A model generated the notes under the pieces. It saw only the letters and a list, made by a program, of their open reading frames with translations. It did not search any database and was not told the DNA's origin. Both the position numbers and the translations under genes were made by a program. Shown here one piece after another: positions 2 to 49,816 of a stretch of 64,000 bases of DNA. Numbering within the stretch: the first letter of the stretch is position 1; every line of letters begins with the position of its first letter. This stretch comes from Candidatus Moanibacter sp. (GTDB lineage: Bacteria; Verrucomicrobiota; Verrucomicrobiia; Opitutales; UBA2987), in the NCBI GenBank assembly GCA_965215885.1, contig CBDCEW010000104.1, positions 276,301-340,300 on the forward strand. The letters run 5' to 3'.

Positions 2-688
2 GCGATTGTTGGGGGAACGGGACCGCAGGGTCGGGGACTTGCCCTTCGCTGGGCCAGGGCCGGTATCGATGTTCTGGTCGGATCGCGCAATGCGGAACGC
101 GGCAGCCGGATTGGAGAGGAATTGAGGGCGCGGGTGGAGACCGGATTGGGTTCTGTTTCAGGTATGTTGAATGAGGAAGCTGTTAGAGCTGCTGATAAGT
201 TTGTCGTAATCTCTGTTCCTTATGCAGCCCACAGGGCAACCCTTGAATCGATAAAAAGCTATCTCTCGGGGAAGATTCTTGTCGACGTGGTTGTACCGTT
301 AGCAGAGGGCAATCCGAAGAAGGTGGTGATGCCCATGGAGGGGTCGTCGACCGAAGAAGCGCAGGCCATACTGGGTGATGAAGTGCCCGTAGTGGGAGCT
401 CTCCATAACGTCTCCGCATACGTTCTCGGGCGATTGGATCTCCCCATCAATTGCGATGTTCTTGTGTGTGGGAATGACAAATCGGCTAAGGATGGTGTAA
501 TCGAGCTTGTAGAGAAACTGGGAGTCACAGCTTATAATGCCGGCTTGGCGGAAAGCGCCCGGGCGGTTGAAACCCTCACAGCGATCCTCATCCGTTTGAA
601 CATCTCAAGAGCCTATTCCTTTAAACACGCAGGGATCAGGATCTGGCCGGAGAGGAATTTGTCGGACCTTAACCCGGAAATGTTCTGA
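2..688 (+). CDS. npdG: NADPH-dependent F420 reductase-like oxidoreductase (5' truncated by window)
   Basis: Frame is open from base 2: [24 protein letters not shown] Rossmann start, then [24 protein letters not shown] and the LT..L..LN C-terminal motif. Confidence 0.85.
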
Positions 689-700
689 GATTTCCGGGTT

Positions 701-1025
701 TGGAGCCTGTTGGACTTTGGCGACTGGGCAGGTTTACTCCGTTTCCAGTGTAAAACAAGCCTTGCGCTCTTATTTTACATTTAACAAAAATGTAAAATAA
801 AACCTAGGCTCTACTCTTCCCTGCGAGTACGTGTTTAGCGCTATTTGACGCTGCCCAGGCACAAGGACCGGGGCAGCCAGCAATCGAAGGTATGACGCTG
901 AACAGGTACCACGGCTTGCCGGGATTAGGAAGATGTCTGTGGTCGAATCCCGCCGCAATGCACAGAAACACTCGGAGAGCGGAACGTTTCCAAGAATCTC
1001 GAAAGCTAAGTCCGACAGATTTCTA
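701..1025. mobile_element. Putative MITE / IS remnant bounded by imperfect inverted ends
   Basis: TGGAGCCTGTTGGACTT (701) versus reverse complement of AAGTCCGACAGATTTCTA (~1008-1025); non-coding between convergent genes. Confidence 0.4.
770..800. repeat. AT-rich perfect palindrome, 13-bp arms, AACAA spacer
   Basis: TTATTTTACATTT-AACAA-AAATGTAAAATAA; related copy at 50477-50509. Confidence 0.85.
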
Positions 1026-1188
1026 GCACGGACATTTCACAAACCATCTGCTGCGATCCCGGCAAGCCGGAACGACCTCAGAGGGTCAAAACACGCTTGT
1101 CGCCCGCCGGACTGCGTAAAGGCTTTGATACGCAGTCCCAGCAGGCCGTGACAGTCTCGCTACGAAGTGTGTGAAATGTCCGGGCTAG

Positions 1189-3171: not shown

Positions 3172-4506
3172 ATGAGGAAGAAATATATATCCCCACGTAA
3201 GTTCATCAAGCCCTCGTTTGCCTATTTGATTGAAAAGAAGCGAGATGGCGGTGAATTTTCCCAGGAGGAAATTCGATATATCGTTGATTCGGTGATGGAC
3301 AAGCAAATGCAGCAATTCCAATTAGCCGCGATGGCCATGGCCATCTATTTTCAGGGGATGTCTGCGCAGGAGACGGCCACATTGGCGGAAGAGATGATGT
3401 TGTCCGGGGAAGTTATCGATTTGTCCAAAATCACGAAACCAAAGATCGATAAATACTCAACCGGTGGAGTTGGTGATAAGACATCCCTGGTACTAGCGCC
3501 GCTTGCCGCAGCCTGCGGAGTGGTTATGCCGATGATGAATGGAGTGGACGAGGAATTTGTTATTAGCAATCTGGATAAATTATCGGCGATTCAGGGATTT
3601 AATAAATCGATGGATCTCGAACAGTTTGTGAAACAGCTGAAAACGGTCAACTGTGCTATAATCGAACAGGATCCGCTGATCGCGCCGGTCGATGAAATTC
3701 TCTACAAGATGCGACAGAAGACGGCGACGATTCCGAGCCTGCCTCTCATTACGGGAAGCGTCCTAAGCCGTAAACTCGCTCAGGGCGCCGAGGGTTTGGT
3801 TATCGATGTAAAATGGGGAAACGGATCCTTCATAAAAGAAATCGAGCAGGCAAAACAGCTGGCGAGGTCAATTACGCGGGTGGGGCGTTCCATGAAGCGA
3901 CGCTGTGTCGCTCTTGTGACGGATATGAATCAGCCATTGGGAGATTGCGTGGGCACAGGGTTGGAGATAAAGGAAGCGATCGAGTTACTTAAGGGGGAAG
4001 GTCCCGCGGATTTGCAGGAACTAGTGTTGAAACTGGGAATGGAGATTGTCCGATTGGCCGGTGTGGCGGGATCCACGTTGTCGGCTAAACAGACGGTGCA
4101 GCGTCATTTGAGCGACGGATCCGCTCTGGGCCGATTTAAGCAGATGATTAAGGCCCAAGGAGGTAAGGCGTCGCTAGTGGACAATCCGGAGGAATTTCCC
4201 AAGGCTAAATACATACGCAAGTTGCCCGCTCCTAAAAGGGGATACGTGCATACGATTAATGCGGGTATGATCGCTCGAGGGGTACAGCTTCTCGCCCAGA
4301 ACAGAAGAGGAAAGTACGATCCGGCGGTTGGGGTATCGGAAATCAGAAAAGTTGGCACGCAAGTAAAACAGGGTGAACCGCTGATGATGATTCATTACAA
4401 CGATGAAGTTCGACTTGAAAGTGCCCTGGAGTATCTTCGCTCGGCCTATCGTCTCGCACCGAAGCGCCCGAATCCTCCGCAACTCATCGCGGAGAGGGTA
4501 GCTTAG
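3172..4506 (+). CDS. Pyrimidine-nucleoside/thymidine phosphorylase homologue with degenerate active site
   Basis: IEKKRDG, DKYSTGGVGDKTSLVLAP, DVKWGNGSF, TDMNQPLG and PYNP C-terminal domain; catalytic motifs altered (see findings). Confidence 0.85.
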   Translation: MRKKYISPRKFIKPSFAYLIEKKRDGGEFSQEEIRYIVDSVMDKQMQQFQLAAMAMAIYFQGMSAQETATLAEEMMLSGEVIDLSKITKPKIDKYSTGGVGDKTSLVLAPLAAACGVVMPMMNGVDEEFVISNLDKLSAIQGFNKSMDLEQFVKQLKTVNCAIIEQDPLIAPVDEILYKMRQKTATIPSLPLITGSVLSRKLAQGAEGLVIDVKWGNGSFIKEIEQAKQLARSITRVGRSMKRRCVALVTDMNQPLGDCVGTGLEIKEAIELLKGEGPADLQELVLKLGMEIVRLAGVAGSTLSAKQTVQRHLSDGSALGRFKQMIKAQGGKASLVDNPEEFPKAKYIRKLPAPKRGYVHTINAGMIARGVQLLAQNRRGKYDPAVGVSEIRKVGTQVKQGEPLMMIHYNDEVRLESALEYLRSAYRLAPKRPNPPQLIAERVA

Positions 4507-4649
4507 GAATCTTATAGTAGCTCCAGGTTATTCATCCAAGGGGCCGAGTGGAGCCGCAGGAAAAACTCGGCGAGGCCCCTTTGTGAATAACTTGGCCGAT
4601 CAGTGGTTGGCGATGGGTCAAAGAGTTTGTTTGGCTAAGGGTGCAAATA

Positions 4650-4816
4650 TTCAAAGGCAGCCGTCCACTACGAACTTAGGAATCAGTCCGAAGAGGACTT
4701 CCGACAGAATTTCGAGTGGACGGCCTGCCTGGATGACCGAAAACGAACACTCAGTTTACATCCTCATAACAGGATCCAACTATAAGGACTTCGCCTGGAC
4801 ATCCAGTGCCTTTGAA
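4650..4816 (+). ncRNA. IS110 bridge RNA core (target-binding and donor-binding loops)
   Basis: Two stem-enclosed internal loops carry TTAGGAATC/CCGACAGA (target guides) and CTCAGTTTAC/ACTATAAG (donor guides); TTCAAAGGCA/TGCCTTTGAA can close the region. Confidence 0.85.
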
Positions 4817-4849
4817 AAAAGCAAAAAGACAAACTAAAGGAACAAAGGG

Positions 4850-6160
4850 ATGCAGAAAAGGGAAAAAACAAATCGATATAGTGTGGTGATAGGAATTGAT
4901 TGGGCGGATCAGAAAAACGATCTGTGGATCATAGAGAGCGAAACGGGAAAAGGGACCCATCGACAGGTGGCGCAGGATGCGGTCAGCTTGCACGAATTTG
5001 CCGTAGAGATGAGAGAAAAGTATGCCAGCGTGGGCAAGCGCATGGCCATGGTGGTGGACCAGAAGCGAGGAGGGTTGATCAACTTTCTGATGGGCTTGGA
5101 GTTTGTCGATATCTATCCAGTGCATGCGGCCAGGGCGAAGGATTATCGCCGGGCGCTGTATCCATCAGGGGCCAAGAGCGACCCGGTCGATGCGCAAATA
5201 CACGCGGAGTTTTTCCTCAAACATCCCGAGCTTTTTACCAAATGTTTCATACCTGACACGGCCCAAACACGGGAGCTGAACCTGTTGTGCGAGGACCGCC
5301 GTGGATTCGTCGATCAGGCTACCAGCCTCGAACAGCAGTTGGGCAGTTGTCTGAAGCAATATAACCCTTTGGTCTTGAAATTGTTCGATGATCTAGGCAG
5401 TGGCCTGTGCCTGCACTTTATATTGCGTTGGCCGACCCTCAAGAAGCTGCACAGAGCATCGGAGGGTGTCTTGCGAAAGTTCTTCTATAAGCACAACTGT
5501 CGCAGTGACGCCAAAATCCAGGAGCGTCTCGAATTGATCGGTAACGCACGAGCCTTGACCGAAGATGCAGCCATCATTGAAGCATCCAGCAGAAAAGCAC
5601 AGACGTTGGCCGGACAGCTTTTGACCCTGTGCCCGCAGATCAAAGCGTATGAGAAGCGTATCAGGGAGCTATTCAGAAGCCATCCCGATGCAGCCGTGTT
5701 CAGTGGCATTCCCGGAGCCGGCGAGGTCATGAGTCCCCGGTTGCTGTGCGCGTTCGGGACCGATCGTTCGCACTTCGAAACGGCCCAGAACATGACCCAG
5801 TGGAATGGATCCGCTCCGGTCACGATCAACAGCGGGCAGGACAAAAGAACCGGACAACCGAAACGAATGGTCAACTGGCGGTGGGCGGCTCCTACCTTCG
5901 TGCGGCAAAGTTTCGTTGAATTTGCCGAACATTCGATCCGAAACTGTGCCTGGGCAAAGGCCTTTTACCAGATCAAAAAAGAACAGGGCAAACCCCGCCA
6001 AACCATTCTTCGTGCCCTCGCTCTCAAGTGGACCCGCATTCTGTTTCGCTGTTGGCAAAATAGCGAACGCTACGATGAGCAAAAGTATCTCCAATCGCTC
6101 CAACGCACCGGTTCACCGGTGTGGAAAAGACTTCAGCAAGCAAATGCCAACGCCTTGTAA
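4850..6160 (+). CDS. IS110-family recombinase/transposase
   Basis: N-terminal IGIDWA, AKSDPVDA (RuvC-like DEDD), IPGAG, G.AP....SG catalytic-Ser motif, ALRALA-like C-terminus. Confidence 0.95.
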   Translation: MQKREKTNRYSVVIGIDWADQKNDLWIIESETGKGTHRQVAQDAVSLHEFAVEMREKYASVGKRMAMVVDQKRGGLINFLMGLEFVDIYPVHAARAKDYRRALYPSGAKSDPVDAQIHAEFFLKHPELFTKCFIPDTAQTRELNLLCEDRRGFVDQATSLEQQLGSCLKQYNPLVLKLFDDLGSGLCLHFILRWPTLKKLHRASEGVLRKFFYKHNCRSDAKIQERLELIGNARALTEDAAIIEASSRKAQTLAGQLLTLCPQIKAYEKRIRELFRSHPDAAVFSGIPGAGEVMSPRLLCAFGTDRSHFETAQNMTQWNGSAPVTINSGQDKRTGQPKRMVNWRWAAPTFVRQSFVEFAEHSIRNCAWAKAFYQIKKEQGKPRQTILRALALKWTRILFRCWQNSERYDEQKYLQSLQRTGSPVWKRLQQANANAL

Positions 6161-6271
6161 ACACAACATGAGAAAAAACTCAAAAAATCCCTTGACGGAC
6201 TACCTCAGTTTTCTGTCGGTCTATACTGAGTCGGAATGTCGCTCTGTCACGGTGAAATGTCCGGGCTAGCA

Positions 6272-6829
6272 TCAGGTGCGTCCCAGATAGGAGCCGTCGG
6301 AGGTACTGACTTTGATGACATCGCCTGTTTTTATAAACAGGGGCGTCTGAACGACGATTCCGGTTTCGGTGGTGACTGGTTTAAGGGCGGCACTGGAAGT
6401 GTCACCTCGGACGGCGTCGGGTGCCTCCGTTACATTCAGTTCCACTGCTGAAGGGAGCTGGATCTGGACCGCCTGGTCTTCGACAAAGAGCACTTCGTAA
6501 AAATTGCCTTCGGAGAGGAATCTCCTGGAGTTCTCGATAAGTTCCTCGTTGAGAACCGTGTCCTCAAACGTCTCCGGGTTGAGAAAGTGGTAGCCCTCTT
6601 GATCGAGGTAGCTGAATTCTAATCGCTGCGTGTCGGTGACGAGGAATCGCACGGAATCGGTGTTGCGAAATTTCGTGGTTGTGGTGGTGTTTGACTGGAG
6701 ATTGCGCATCGTAACCTGGACGAATCCGGCCTGTCGTCCCTGGGTTCGATGAATCATATCGAGTACGAGGTGAGGCACGCTATTATAGTCTAGCACCTTT
6801 CCTTTACGAATTTCGGTTGGTGAAGCCAT
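6272..6829 (-). CDS. efp: Elongation factor P
   Basis: [14 protein letters not shown] loop (Arg at the tip), [22 protein letters not shown]....G.YLGR. Confidence 0.97.
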
Positions 6830-47375: not shown

Positions 47376-48069
47376 GGGAATGTTCTAATCCCGTAACTTC
47401 ATGCAATGTGCGGACATTGAATTGACCGCGGATGACACGGATTTACACGGATGGGAAAGCGCGAATTTGGAGTGTAATATGTTGGAATTCAAGATAGTGA
47501 GGTCGCCAAGGTATGGGTCCCGCTGAGCGGGATTGCGACAAGGTTACTAGCGATTTAGGAGTTTCCTCCGCAATCCGATCAAGAATGTCCTGGCAATTAA
47601 CCTGCTCAGGGTACAATGCAGCAAACCTGGTCGCAAGACACATCGGGAACGATGTCGGCATGGAATCGAAGTTTTCAGGTCTCGACGTGCCTGGAGGATC
47701 GCATGTTCAATCAATCCGCGGTGTTCTCGAATCCGTGGGCTACTCTTTCTCTCTTATTCCTCTTCGTTTCCTTCTGTTCAATTCTCTGTGGTCCTCTTTG
47801 GTTCTCGGTGGTGCTCTGTGTCCCCTCTTCTGTTTTTTCGGCTTTCCAGTTTGTTTGAGGTCGTAGGCTGCTTTAGATATCTGGTCTTCCTCAAGATGCA
47901 ATCGTCGCCCTGAGATGGGAGTGGAAGGACTCGAACCTTCATCTGCCCGTTCGTAGCGGGCTGCTCTTCCTTTGAACTACACTCCCGTATTGGCGCCCAT
48001 GACGGGAAGTCCGACAGAAAACTGAGGTAGTCCGTCAAGGGATTTTTTGAGTTTTTTCTCATGTTGTGT

Positions 48070-49380
48070 TTACAAGGCGTTGGCATTTGCTTGCTGAAGT
48101 CTTTTCCACACCGGTGAACCGGTGCGTTGGAGCGATTGGAGATACTTTTGCTCATCGTAGCGTTCGCTATTTTGCCAACAGCGAAACAGAATGCGGGTCC
48201 ACTTGAGAGCGAGGGCACGAAGAATGGTTTGGCGGGGTTTGCCCTGTTCTTTTTTGATCTGGTAAAAGGCCTTTGCCCAGGCACAGTTTCGGATCGAATG
48301 TTCGGCAAATTCAACGAAACTTTGCCGCACGAAGGTAGGAGCCGCCCACCGCCAGTTGACCATTCGTTTCGGTTGTCCGGTTCTTTTGTCCTGCCCGCTG
48401 TTGATCGTGACCGGAGCGGATCCATTCCACTGGGTCATGTTCTGGGCCGTTTCGAAGTGCGAACGATCGGTCCCGAACGCGCACAGCAACCGGGGACTCA
48501 TGACCTCGCCGGCTCCGGGAATGCCACTGAACACGGCTGCATCGGGATGGCTTCTGAATAGCTCCCTGATACGCTTCTCATACGCTTTGATCTGCGGGCA
48601 CAGGGTCAAAAGCTGTCCGGCCAACGTCTGTGCTTTTCTGCTGGATGCTTCAATGATGGCTGCATCTTCGGTCAAGGCTCGTGCGTTACCGATCAATTCG
48701 AGACGCTCCTGGATTTTGGCGTCACTGCGACAGTTGTGCTTATAGAAGAACTTTCGCAAGACACCCTCCGATGCTCTGTGCAGCTTCTTGAGGGTCGGCC
48801 AACGCAATATAAAGTGCAGGCACAGGCCACTGCCTAGATCATCGAACAATTTCAAGACCAAAGGGTTATATTGCTTCAGACAACTGCCCAACTGCTGTTC
48901 GAGGCTGGTAGCCTGATCGACGAATCCACGGCGGTCCTCGCACAACAGGTTCAGCTCCCGTGTTTGGGCCGTGTCAGGTATGAAACATTTGGTAAAAAGC
49001 TCGGGATGTTTGAGGAAAAACTCCGCGTGTATTTGCGCATCGACCGGGTCGCTCTTGGCCCCTGATGGATACAGCGCCCGGCGATAATCCTTCGCCCTGG
49101 CCGCATGCACTGGATAGATATCGACAAACTCCAAGCCCATCAGAAAGTTGATCAACCCTCCTCGCTTCTGGTCCACCACCATGGCCATGCGCTTGCCCAC
49201 GCTGGCATACTTTTCTCTCATCTCTACGGCAAATTCGTGCAAGCTGACCGCATCCTGCGCCACCTGTCGATGGGTCCCTTTTCCCGTTTCGCTCTCTATG
49301 ATCCACAGATCGTTTTTCTGATCCGCCCAATCAATTCCTATCACCACACTATATCGATTTGTTTTTTCCCTTTTCTGCAT
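48070..49380 (-). CDS. IS110-family recombinase/transposase
   Basis: Protein identical to 4850-6160. Confidence 0.95.
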   Translation of the reverse strand: MQKREKTNRYSVVIGIDWADQKNDLWIIESETGKGTHRQVAQDAVSLHEFAVEMREKYASVGKRMAMVVDQKRGGLINFLMGLEFVDIYPVHAARAKDYRRALYPSGAKSDPVDAQIHAEFFLKHPELFTKCFIPDTAQTRELNLLCEDRRGFVDQATSLEQQLGSCLKQYNPLVLKLFDDLGSGLCLHFILRWPTLKKLHRASEGVLRKFFYKHNCRSDAKIQERLELIGNARALTEDAAIIEASSRKAQTLAGQLLTLCPQIKAYEKRIRELFRSHPDAAVFSGIPGAGEVMSPRLLCAFGTDRSHFETAQNMTQWNGSAPVTINSGQDKRTGQPKRMVNWRWAAPTFVRQSFVEFAEHSIRNCAWAKAFYQIKKEQGKPRQTILRALALKWTRILFRCWQNSERYDEQKYLQSLQRTGSPVWKRLQQANANAL

Positions 49381-49413
49381 CCCTTTGTTCCTTTAGTTTG
49401 TCTTTTTGCTTTT

Positions 49414-49580
49414 TTCAAAGGCACTGGATGTCCAGGCGAAGTCCTTATAGTTGGATCCTGTTATGAGGATGTAAACTGAGTGTTCGTTTTCGGTCATCCA
49501 GGCAGGCCGTCCACTCGAAATTCTGTCGGAAGTCCTCTTCGGACTGATTCCTAAGTTCGTAGTGGACGGCTGCCTTTGAA
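49414..49580 (-). ncRNA. IS110 bridge RNA core, copy 2
   Basis: Reverse complement of 4650-4816. Confidence 0.83.
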
Positions 49581-49741
49581 TATTTTCACCCTTAGCCAAA
49601 CAAACTCTTTGACCCATCGCCAACCACTGATCGGCCAAGTTATTCACAAAGGGGCCTCGCCGAGTTTTTCCTGCGGCTCCACTCGGCCCCTTGGATGAAT
49701 AACCTGGAGCTACTATAAGATTCCTGGATGACAAGGGCAGG

Positions 49742-49816
49742 TGGGTTGACCAAAGGGAATCGAACCCTTATCCCCGCAATCACAATGCGGTGCTCTGCCG
49801 TTGAGCTATGGCCAAC
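49742..49816 (-). tRNA. tRNA-His (GUG)
   Basis: G(-1)-TTGGCCA/TGGTCAA-C-CCA acceptor, GCTC/GAGC D stem, CCGCA-TTGTGAT-TGCGG anticodon arm, AAGGG-TTCGATT-CCCTT T arm. Confidence 0.93.

Follow-up and report, generated by a model that had tools for sequence, protein, structure and literature searches.

The closest described systems to the locus studied here are the bridge-RNA elements of the IS110 family, in particular IS621 and ISCro4 (IS622); statements taken from the literature refer to the available parts of the cited texts. Bridge RNAs have been predicted in 85.7% of the IS110 elements in ISfinder (PMC11208160), and another study predicted 32,190 bridge RNAs, with 86 covariance models and with guide-DNA pairs ranging from 12 to 40 (10.64898/2026.10.21.760802). 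Since such RNAs are already predicted and modelled at scale, the kind of system is known, and it is the member of the present clade that is new. IS621 strongly prefers both guides to be paired with both bases of the core, and position 7 of its left donor (LD) is the one that tolerates a mismatch (PMC11208160). Donor-like insertion sites have also been noted for IS621 (PMC11208160) and are classed as LD+RD or as LD-only 'half-match' events in 10.64898/2026.08.31.748434. Among the bridge-RNA structural classes in the available part of 10.1101/2024.06.21.599552 there are none that bear on this clade.

The element described here lies in the window, by which we mean the whole stretch of 64,000 nucleotides of Candidatus Moanibacter sp. 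that was analysed. We read it with high confidence as an active insertion sequence of the IS110 group that encodes a bridge RNA in its non-coding left end. It is a genuine bridge-RNA system in a distant IS110 clade, with a somewhat changed layout of the RNA, for which we infer transcription, RNA-protein binding and catalysis. The basis that is directly demonstrated consists of the sequence matches, the covariation of the RNA structure, the covariation of guides and flanks, the single-base difference in specificity that separates two sister elements, and the protein fold.

The element, its target repeat and its recombinase

Copy 1 of the insertion sequence occupies 4513..6212 on the forward strand (1,700 bp) and has a CT core at both bounds. 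Its left junction, TTAGGAAT-CT-TATAGT at 4503-4518, is composed of the left target (LT) TTAGGAAT (4503..4510, forward strand), of which positions -7 to -1 are common to the insertion sites, the left copy of the CT core (4511..4512, forward strand) and the right donor arm TATAGT (4513..4518, forward strand), which doubles as the -10 hexamer of a putative circle-junction promoter. The right junction, CTCAGTTTT-CT-GTCGG at 6204-6219, starts with the left donor arm (LD) CTCAGTTTT (6204..6212, forward strand), which is the right end of the element. It is followed by the right CT core (6213-6214) and the right target GTCGG (6215-6219), so that 6213..6219 on the forward strand is also where the palindromic repeat begins. 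The upstream gene (ORF 3172-4506) extends into the LT with its stop codon. In another sample, a contig of the sequencing run X17 joins 4509 to 6212 with 1702 bases absent and represents the empty site of copy 1, thus fixing the boundaries of this copy. Reading of the element ends, TATAGTAGCTCC... and ...TACCTCAGTTTT, revealed no terminal inverted repeats.

The window's own genome (G000; 105 contigs, 6.36 Mb, 90% completeness) contains 10 full copies and two fragments of the element. The 10 bodies are 1,700 bp long each with at most three substitutions relative to copy 1, CT is present at both junctions in all 10 of them, and the open frames are intact in 8 copies, which are the 8 scored for frames. 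Copy 2 in the window (48018..49717, reverse strand; bridge RNA core at 49412-49580) differs from copy 1 by one substitution and sits in CAGGAAT-CT-GTCGG. A megablast search of a plasmid collection with the element gave no match. An isolated internal fragment of 193 bp, 100% identical to a stretch inside the element's ORF, was found on another contig of the genome (C99:54446-54638). Furthermore, similar tRNA-like sequences with a GGTTCGATTCC motif adjoin two copies, at about 49720-49800 in the window (left flank of copy 2) and at about position 14500 of contig C59 of the same genome.

Nine of the ten copies sit in [T/C]AGGAAT-CT-GTCGG, where position -7 is T in six copies and C in three; the C variant could form a wobble pair with the guide U. 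The corresponding 13-mer AGGAATCTGTCGG occurs 256 times in the genome, compared with about 0.2 occurrences expected by arithmetic from the genome size, and represents the inverted ends of a palindromic repeat. We detected 48 exact inverted pairs of the motif, of which 31 span 96 bp, making this the commonest unit. The repeat family is REP/MITE-like with the ends TAGGAATCTGTCGGAC...GTCCGACAGATTCCTA and is found at 6213-6290 in the window as well as genome-wide. Insertion is preferentially into the end of a palindromic repeat of about 96 bp, and this repeat provides hundreds of landing sites, mostly intergenic. Beyond the target, the flanks are unlike one another in most of the 10 copies.

The gene at 4850..6160 on the forward strand encodes a 436-aa IS110-family DEDD/Ser recombinase. 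Residues 14-173 match the N-terminal DEDD RuvC-like domain DEDD_Tnp_IS110 (Pfam: PF01548) with an E-value of 1.2e-17 and 64.5 bits against a cut-off of 29, and the C-terminal domain Transposase_20 (Pfam: PF02371) is found with an E-value of 2.3e-9 and 38 bits against a cut-off of 21.3. In an alignment of 32 proteins of the clade (A1) the residues D17, D111 and D114 are invariant, as is the pair S328-G329, which aligns with the SG of IS621. The conserved serine of the C-terminal domain is the presumed nucleophile. The NCBIfam model 'IS110 family RNA-guided transposase' (NF033542) matches over the full length with an E-value of 2.1e-34 and 119.2 bits, under its cut-off of 140, and by this model the protein is an outlying member.

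Sequence matches to the solved structures are weak and restricted to the C-terminal domain, with E-values of 1.7e-4 for IS621 and 8.8e-5 for ISCro4. The AlphaFold model of the protein (pLDDT 88.3, pTM 0.83) was compared with known structures by Foldseek, and the top 10 matches all belong to IS621 and ISCro4 in complex with bridge RNA and DNA, with E-values of 2.4e-12 to 1e-10, 16-17% identity and target-normalised TM scores of 0.62-0.66. The residues that are extra to IS621 fall between the two Pfam domains. The first-pass annotation of this DNA had called the enzyme a larger one, which is correct relative to IS621 with its 328-aa chain. Within its own clade the length is ordinary: the clade is large (1,558 proteins at E <= 1e-30), and lengths of 418-450 aa prevail among those listed.

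The bridge RNA and the covariation of its guides

The region 4640-4820 folds with a minimum free energy of -66 kcal/mol (z = -6.5), and none of 200 shuffles folds equally well. Based on this fold, a covariance model and the covariation of the helices, the core of the bridge RNA spans 4650..4818 on the forward strand. A closing stem of 9 bp (4651-4659 / 4807-4815) surrounds the target-binding and the donor-binding stem-loop, and each of these two stem-loops consists of an inner CGAA/UUCG helix, an internal loop and a terminal hairpin. In addition, the fold has a 5' stem-loop of the left end at 4524..4594 (forward strand), the pairing of which is, by eye, kept despite changes in the sister element of a second genome, G118, and which is probably the 5' part of the RNA. 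Position 4644 of the window is C in copy 1 and A in the other nine copies and in all four sequencing runs that were compared; as this base lies just outside the closing stem, we do not expect the difference to have a structural effect.

The first stem is formed by GCCGTCCACT (4660-4669) and AGTGGACGGC (4715-4724). It encloses the left target guide TTAGGAATC (4676..4684, forward strand), which is equal to the LT plus the core C, a hairpin at 4685-4699 and the right target guide CCGACAGA (4701..4708, forward strand), which is the reverse complement of T-CT-GTCGG. The second stem, CTGGATG (4729-4735) with CATCCAG (4800-4806), encloses the left donor guide CTCAGTTTAC (4750..4759, forward strand), which is equal to the LD plus the core C except for an A in place of T at -1. 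The hairpin of the second loop is positioned at 4760-4775 and is followed by the right donor guide ACTATAAG (4779..4786, forward strand), the reverse complement of CT-TATAGT. The right guides pair with both bases of the CT core. Opposite the same core the left guides read C-A, and in each loop this A opens the hairpin stem, which restricts the left guides to the first core base; pairing of the left guides with the second core base, as in IS621, is absent here.

All coordinates and sequences of stems, loops, hairpins and guides in the first-pass annotation agree letter for letter with the sequence. The same applies to its targets, TAGGAAT-CT-GTCGG for copy 1 and CAGGAAT-CT-GTCGG for copy 2, to the inner CGAA/TTCG pairing of both loops and to its reading of CA rather than CT at the core in the left guides. 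Two-part patterns of the two loops were each found only in the window's two IS copies, with chance expectations of 0.01 and 0.00 (100 shuffles). A search of Rfam at E <= 10 returned three chance-level hits to unrelated families, none of them on the loops, and no family was matched.

A scan of genome contigs with the single protein found no relatives, and a search with the alignment A1 then gave 79 loci with 34-46% protein identity in MAGs and genomes labelled Acidobacteriota, Verrucomicrobiota, Planctomycetota, cyanobacteria, Proteobacteria and others. We built a covariance model (R1) from two RNAs only, those of G000 and G118. In 57 of the 79 loci it has a full-length match immediately 5' of the ORF (E 9e-18 to 1e-5), and in the other 22, some of which are cut off upstream, it has no full-length match. 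In the helices 93.1% of the cells are paired, compared with 63.9% in shuffles and 31-47% in slid controls, where it has to be considered that the alignment is fitted to the model and thereby favours the structure; in the same model-fitted alignment both sides have changed in 43 of 47 pairs. The ACGAA and UUCG motifs beside both loops are nearly invariant across the relatives. Guide positions are variable in the target loop, and the donor loop is conserved (CUCAG..., CUAUAAG). Two loci contain paired related elements: in the MAG locus L103 they are in tandem at 980-1143 and 2711-2874, 1731 bp apart, and in the MAG locus L085 they are head to head at 270-439 (reverse strand) and 1004-1173 (forward strand).

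We compared the guides with the flanking DNA for those loci with a located element end, which are 31 for the left and 32 for the right end out of 53 non-redundant rows. Because the donor guides had served to locate the element ends in the relatives, the comparison is independent on the target side only. Left flanks match their own target loop at a mean of 7.19 of 9 positions (n=31), compared with 4.10 for the loops of other elements (n=1612). For the right flanks the mean is 6.25 of 7 with the own loop (n=32, 20 of them perfect) and 3.29 with those of others (n=1664, 19 perfect). Three related loci in Acidobacteriota-labelled MAGs (L055, L062 and L066) have a GT core, and their right target and right donor guides are altered to match.

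The relatives also inform about the positions around the core. In 29 relatives that have a CT core, the left target guide shows CT at the core positions in 13 cases, CA in 9, CC in 5 and something else in 2. The left donor guide has a T at the second core base in none of 33 loci and mismatches the donor at -1 in 22 of the 33, both counts assuming the register CTCAG+9, by which some non-CT cores may be mis-set. Judging from these alignments, the base just 5' of the core (-1) is unread in the clade.

The sister element in G118, a genome of the same family as that of the window, has 80% protein identity. Its RNA structure is kept: in the first hairpin a C-G pair is replaced by G-C, and in the closing stem an A-U pair by G-C. 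The left target guide of this element is TTAGGAGGC. Out of 23 left junctions in this genome, 20 read TAGGAGT-CT, two TAGGAGG-CT, one TAGGAGC-CT and none TAGGAAT-CT. The free sites are distributed differently: AGGAAT-CT-GTCGG is the commonest with 591 occurrences, versus 237 for AGGAGT and 56 for AGGAGG. If use were proportional to occurrence, the probability of finding 0 of 23 insertions in the commonest class would be about 1e-11 (our arithmetic, assuming independent insertions). In G000, where the guide reads AAT, all 9 repeat insertions fall in AAT sites; with AAT making up 256 of the 266 sites, this carries no information by itself. The junctions therefore show that position -2 of the target is read by the guide. 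Under a G guide, -1 can be T, G or C, and position -1 of the target is thus not read. The two genomes thus provide a natural single-base specificity experiment, with differing left target guides and differing variants of one repeat.

The earlier reading of the locus as an IS621-type bridge RNA is supported by the IS110 domains, the predicted fold similar to IS621 and ISCro4, and the covariation of the guides. The check that had been suggested for it, covariation of guides and flanks in homologues, came out positive both for own versus other flanks and in the sister element. It had also been stated that the guide specificity is new, which is true and was to be expected because, to our knowledge, every IS110 lineage has its own guides.

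Expression, mobility and the tenth copy

No promoter-like site was found in the integrated left end (4400-4900), so expression needs either the circle or read-through. A terminator scan of the integrated left end found none, including between the RNA structure and the ORF. The -35 hexamer TTGACG at 6192..6197 (forward strand) comes to lie 17 nt from TATAGT once the ends are joined. An equivalent pair, with TTGAC(G/A) or TTGATG 16-18 nt from TATAG, is present in all 22 distinct reconstructed junctions. By its match to the consensus, TTGACG-17 nt-TATAGT is a putative junction promoter, and a start about 7 nt after TATAGT would coincide with the foot of the 5' hairpin 4524-4594. We saw no circle-junction joint in the contigs of four sequencing runs. 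Copy 1 begins 5 nt after the stop of a co-directional ORF of 444 aa (3172-4506), and between the two there is no terminator-like site, so that a basal level of the RNA could arise by read-through into the integrated copy.

Two metatranscriptome runs of one study have contigs over 4566-4799 and 4505-4805, which carry no end or strand information and may include DNA. These contigs stop at 4799 and 4805, where DNA contigs run on, and their depth is above that of neighbouring ORF contigs (21.5 versus 5.9 and 13.7 versus 4.3). Coming from contigs of a single study, the ends and the depth give a weak hint of a transcript.

The contigs of the four runs also bear on whether the element is a living one. 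It might be that the RNA is real and the element an immobile fossil, with copies that go back to old activity or to duplication together with their flanks, as the missing circle junction and the tRNA-like left flanks common to two copies would allow. We consider this very unlikely, since the 10 copies differ at no more than three of 1,700 bases and have intact ORFs in the 8 scored, their flanks beyond the target differ in most cases and the empty site of copy 1 is present in another sample. A different objection concerns the RNA itself. Across about 30 independent elements the loops vary along with the flanks, the left-guide difference between G000 and G118 tracks the repeat variant used, and the loops are placed in the layout that was shown experimentally for IS621 (PMC11208160). 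All this makes it extremely unlikely that the left-end structure is a mere 5' leader for the translation or stability of the transposase mRNA, with the matches as by-products and the protein alone recognising the repeat, although the structure is positioned directly upstream of the start codon with no terminator before the ORF. In favour of such a leader, the targets of the IS110 family are in many cases palindromic repeats, which might in principle be recognised by a protein, and a structural layer of target recognition has been reported for ISPpu10 in the available text of 10.64898/2026.03.19.712850.

For the element as an active, bridge-RNA-encoding one, we propose the following cycle. On excision, the right and left ends would be joined through the CT core into a circle, and the junction would create the sigma-70-type promoter. 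This promoter would drive an RNA from near 4525 through the 5' hairpin and the two-loop core 4650-4818, and the same RNA would probably continue into the recombinase gene. The recombinase would bind the bridge RNA, the first internal loop of which would pair with the target and the second likewise with the donor junction (CTCAGTTT.C and CT-TATAGT), and strand exchange at CT would insert the element. Occasionally the donor loop may pick a donor-like genomic site, which would explain one gene-disrupting copy.

This copy is the tenth, on contig C84 of G000, and sits in CTCAGTTTA-CT-TATGGG. When its flanks are rejoined, a single reading frame of at least 554 aa runs through the site, and thus a gene is disrupted by the insertion. 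Of the two arms, the left one agrees with the left donor guide over all 9 positions, even at the A that is absent from the donor of the element itself, and the right one agrees at 4 of 6. The 14-mer CTCAGTTT[AT]CTTAT is found in the genome only at the two junctions of this copy. We also considered the flanks as remnants of another IS end and rejected this, since the only similarity that blastn-short detects is 9-10 nt long, at the junction, and since a single long ORF results from rejoining the flanks. On the same contig, C84:1-891 is 99.25% identical to C84:54252-55142 in inverted orientation, comprising the last 491 bp of the IS and 400 bp of right flank. An inverted duplication, a second strain or an artefact of the assembly may each account for this.

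The tenth copy is likely a natural donor-like insertion, selected by the donor loop. That it arrived fortuitously, by homologous recombination or in some other way, or that it is an artefact of the assembly, is rather unlikely and still has to be taken seriously, as this is a single event with a right arm of 4 of 6, on a contig that starts with an inverted duplicate of the 3' part of the IS and its flank, where the assembly is unusual. Selection by the donor loop is favoured by the absence of the 14-mer elsewhere in the genome, by the left arm, which at -1 agrees with the guide and not with the donor, and by both junctions being exact at CT. Moreover, donor-like and LD-only insertions have been reported for IS621 (PMC11208160; 10.64898/2026.08.31.748434).

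From a donor-loop-selected insertion one can go further and suggest that the element has two natural insertion addresses, where the target loop reads 14-15 bp of the repeat end and the donor loop alone picks donor-like sites in unique genes, with an unread position beside the core in both loops and about 33-34 guide-DNA pairs. We put this forward tentatively and hold it to be possible, though doubtful. If true, this would be a natural long-guide bridge system, and half-match insertion by the donor loop would be a biological route to gene disruption and not only a laboratory off-target.

Comparison with known bridge systems

Bridge recombinases are under development as programmable DNA-insertion tools, for which distant orthologues with longer contiguous guides are useful raw material. 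For genome annotation, the element explains 10 near-identical repeats of 1.7 kb and their link to a palindromic repeat with 256 copies of the end motif. The understanding of how bridge systems work is unchanged by it. Of most use beyond this are the contrast with G118 in single-base specificity and the gene disruption that matches the donor loop.

As in IS621 and ISCro4, the RNA is encoded in the left end, upstream of the DEDD/Ser recombinase, and a 5' stem-loop is followed by the target-binding and the donor-binding internal loops (PMC11208160, available part). The left guides correspond to the top strand and the right guides to its reverse complement. Further common points are a CT core, a repetitive palindromic element as target and higher conservation of the donor loop than of the target loop. 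With IS621 the element further shares the rebuilding of a promoter at the circle junction, suggested here by the consensus match, and a donor-like off-target insertion (both for IS621 in the available part of PMC11208160).

Other features set the element apart. The protein is only 16-17% identical to those of IS621 and ISCro4 and about 100 aa longer, and unlike in these systems both stem-loops are surrounded by a 9-bp closing stem. In contrast to IS621, the left guides cover the first core base only and leave -1 unread. The right guides are contiguous with 7-8 nt, whereas IS621 has an RTG of 4 nt and a discontiguous RDG. By our own count there are about 33-34 guide-DNA pairs, compared with 28 in IS621 according to the available text of 10.64898/2026.10.21.760802, and the left end is 337 nt long, compared with an RNA of 177 nt in IS621.

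The IS1111-group elements with seekRNAs share the DEDD transposase family and the RNA-guided choice of target (PMC11187229, available part). In IS1111 the RNA is located in the right end, downstream of the gene, and there are subterminal inverted repeats; here the RNA is upstream and no such repeats were seen at the ends. The right end after the stop codon comprises only 52 bp (6161-6212), and a downstream guide RNA of the IS1111 type is not found. With the Pseudomonas elements ISPpu9 and ISPpu10, as far as described in the available parts of PMC12288879 and 10.64898/2026.03.19.712850, the element has in common that many copies are inserted in repetitive extragenic palindromes, and by the same descriptions it differs from them in its host, its repeat family and its guide sequences.
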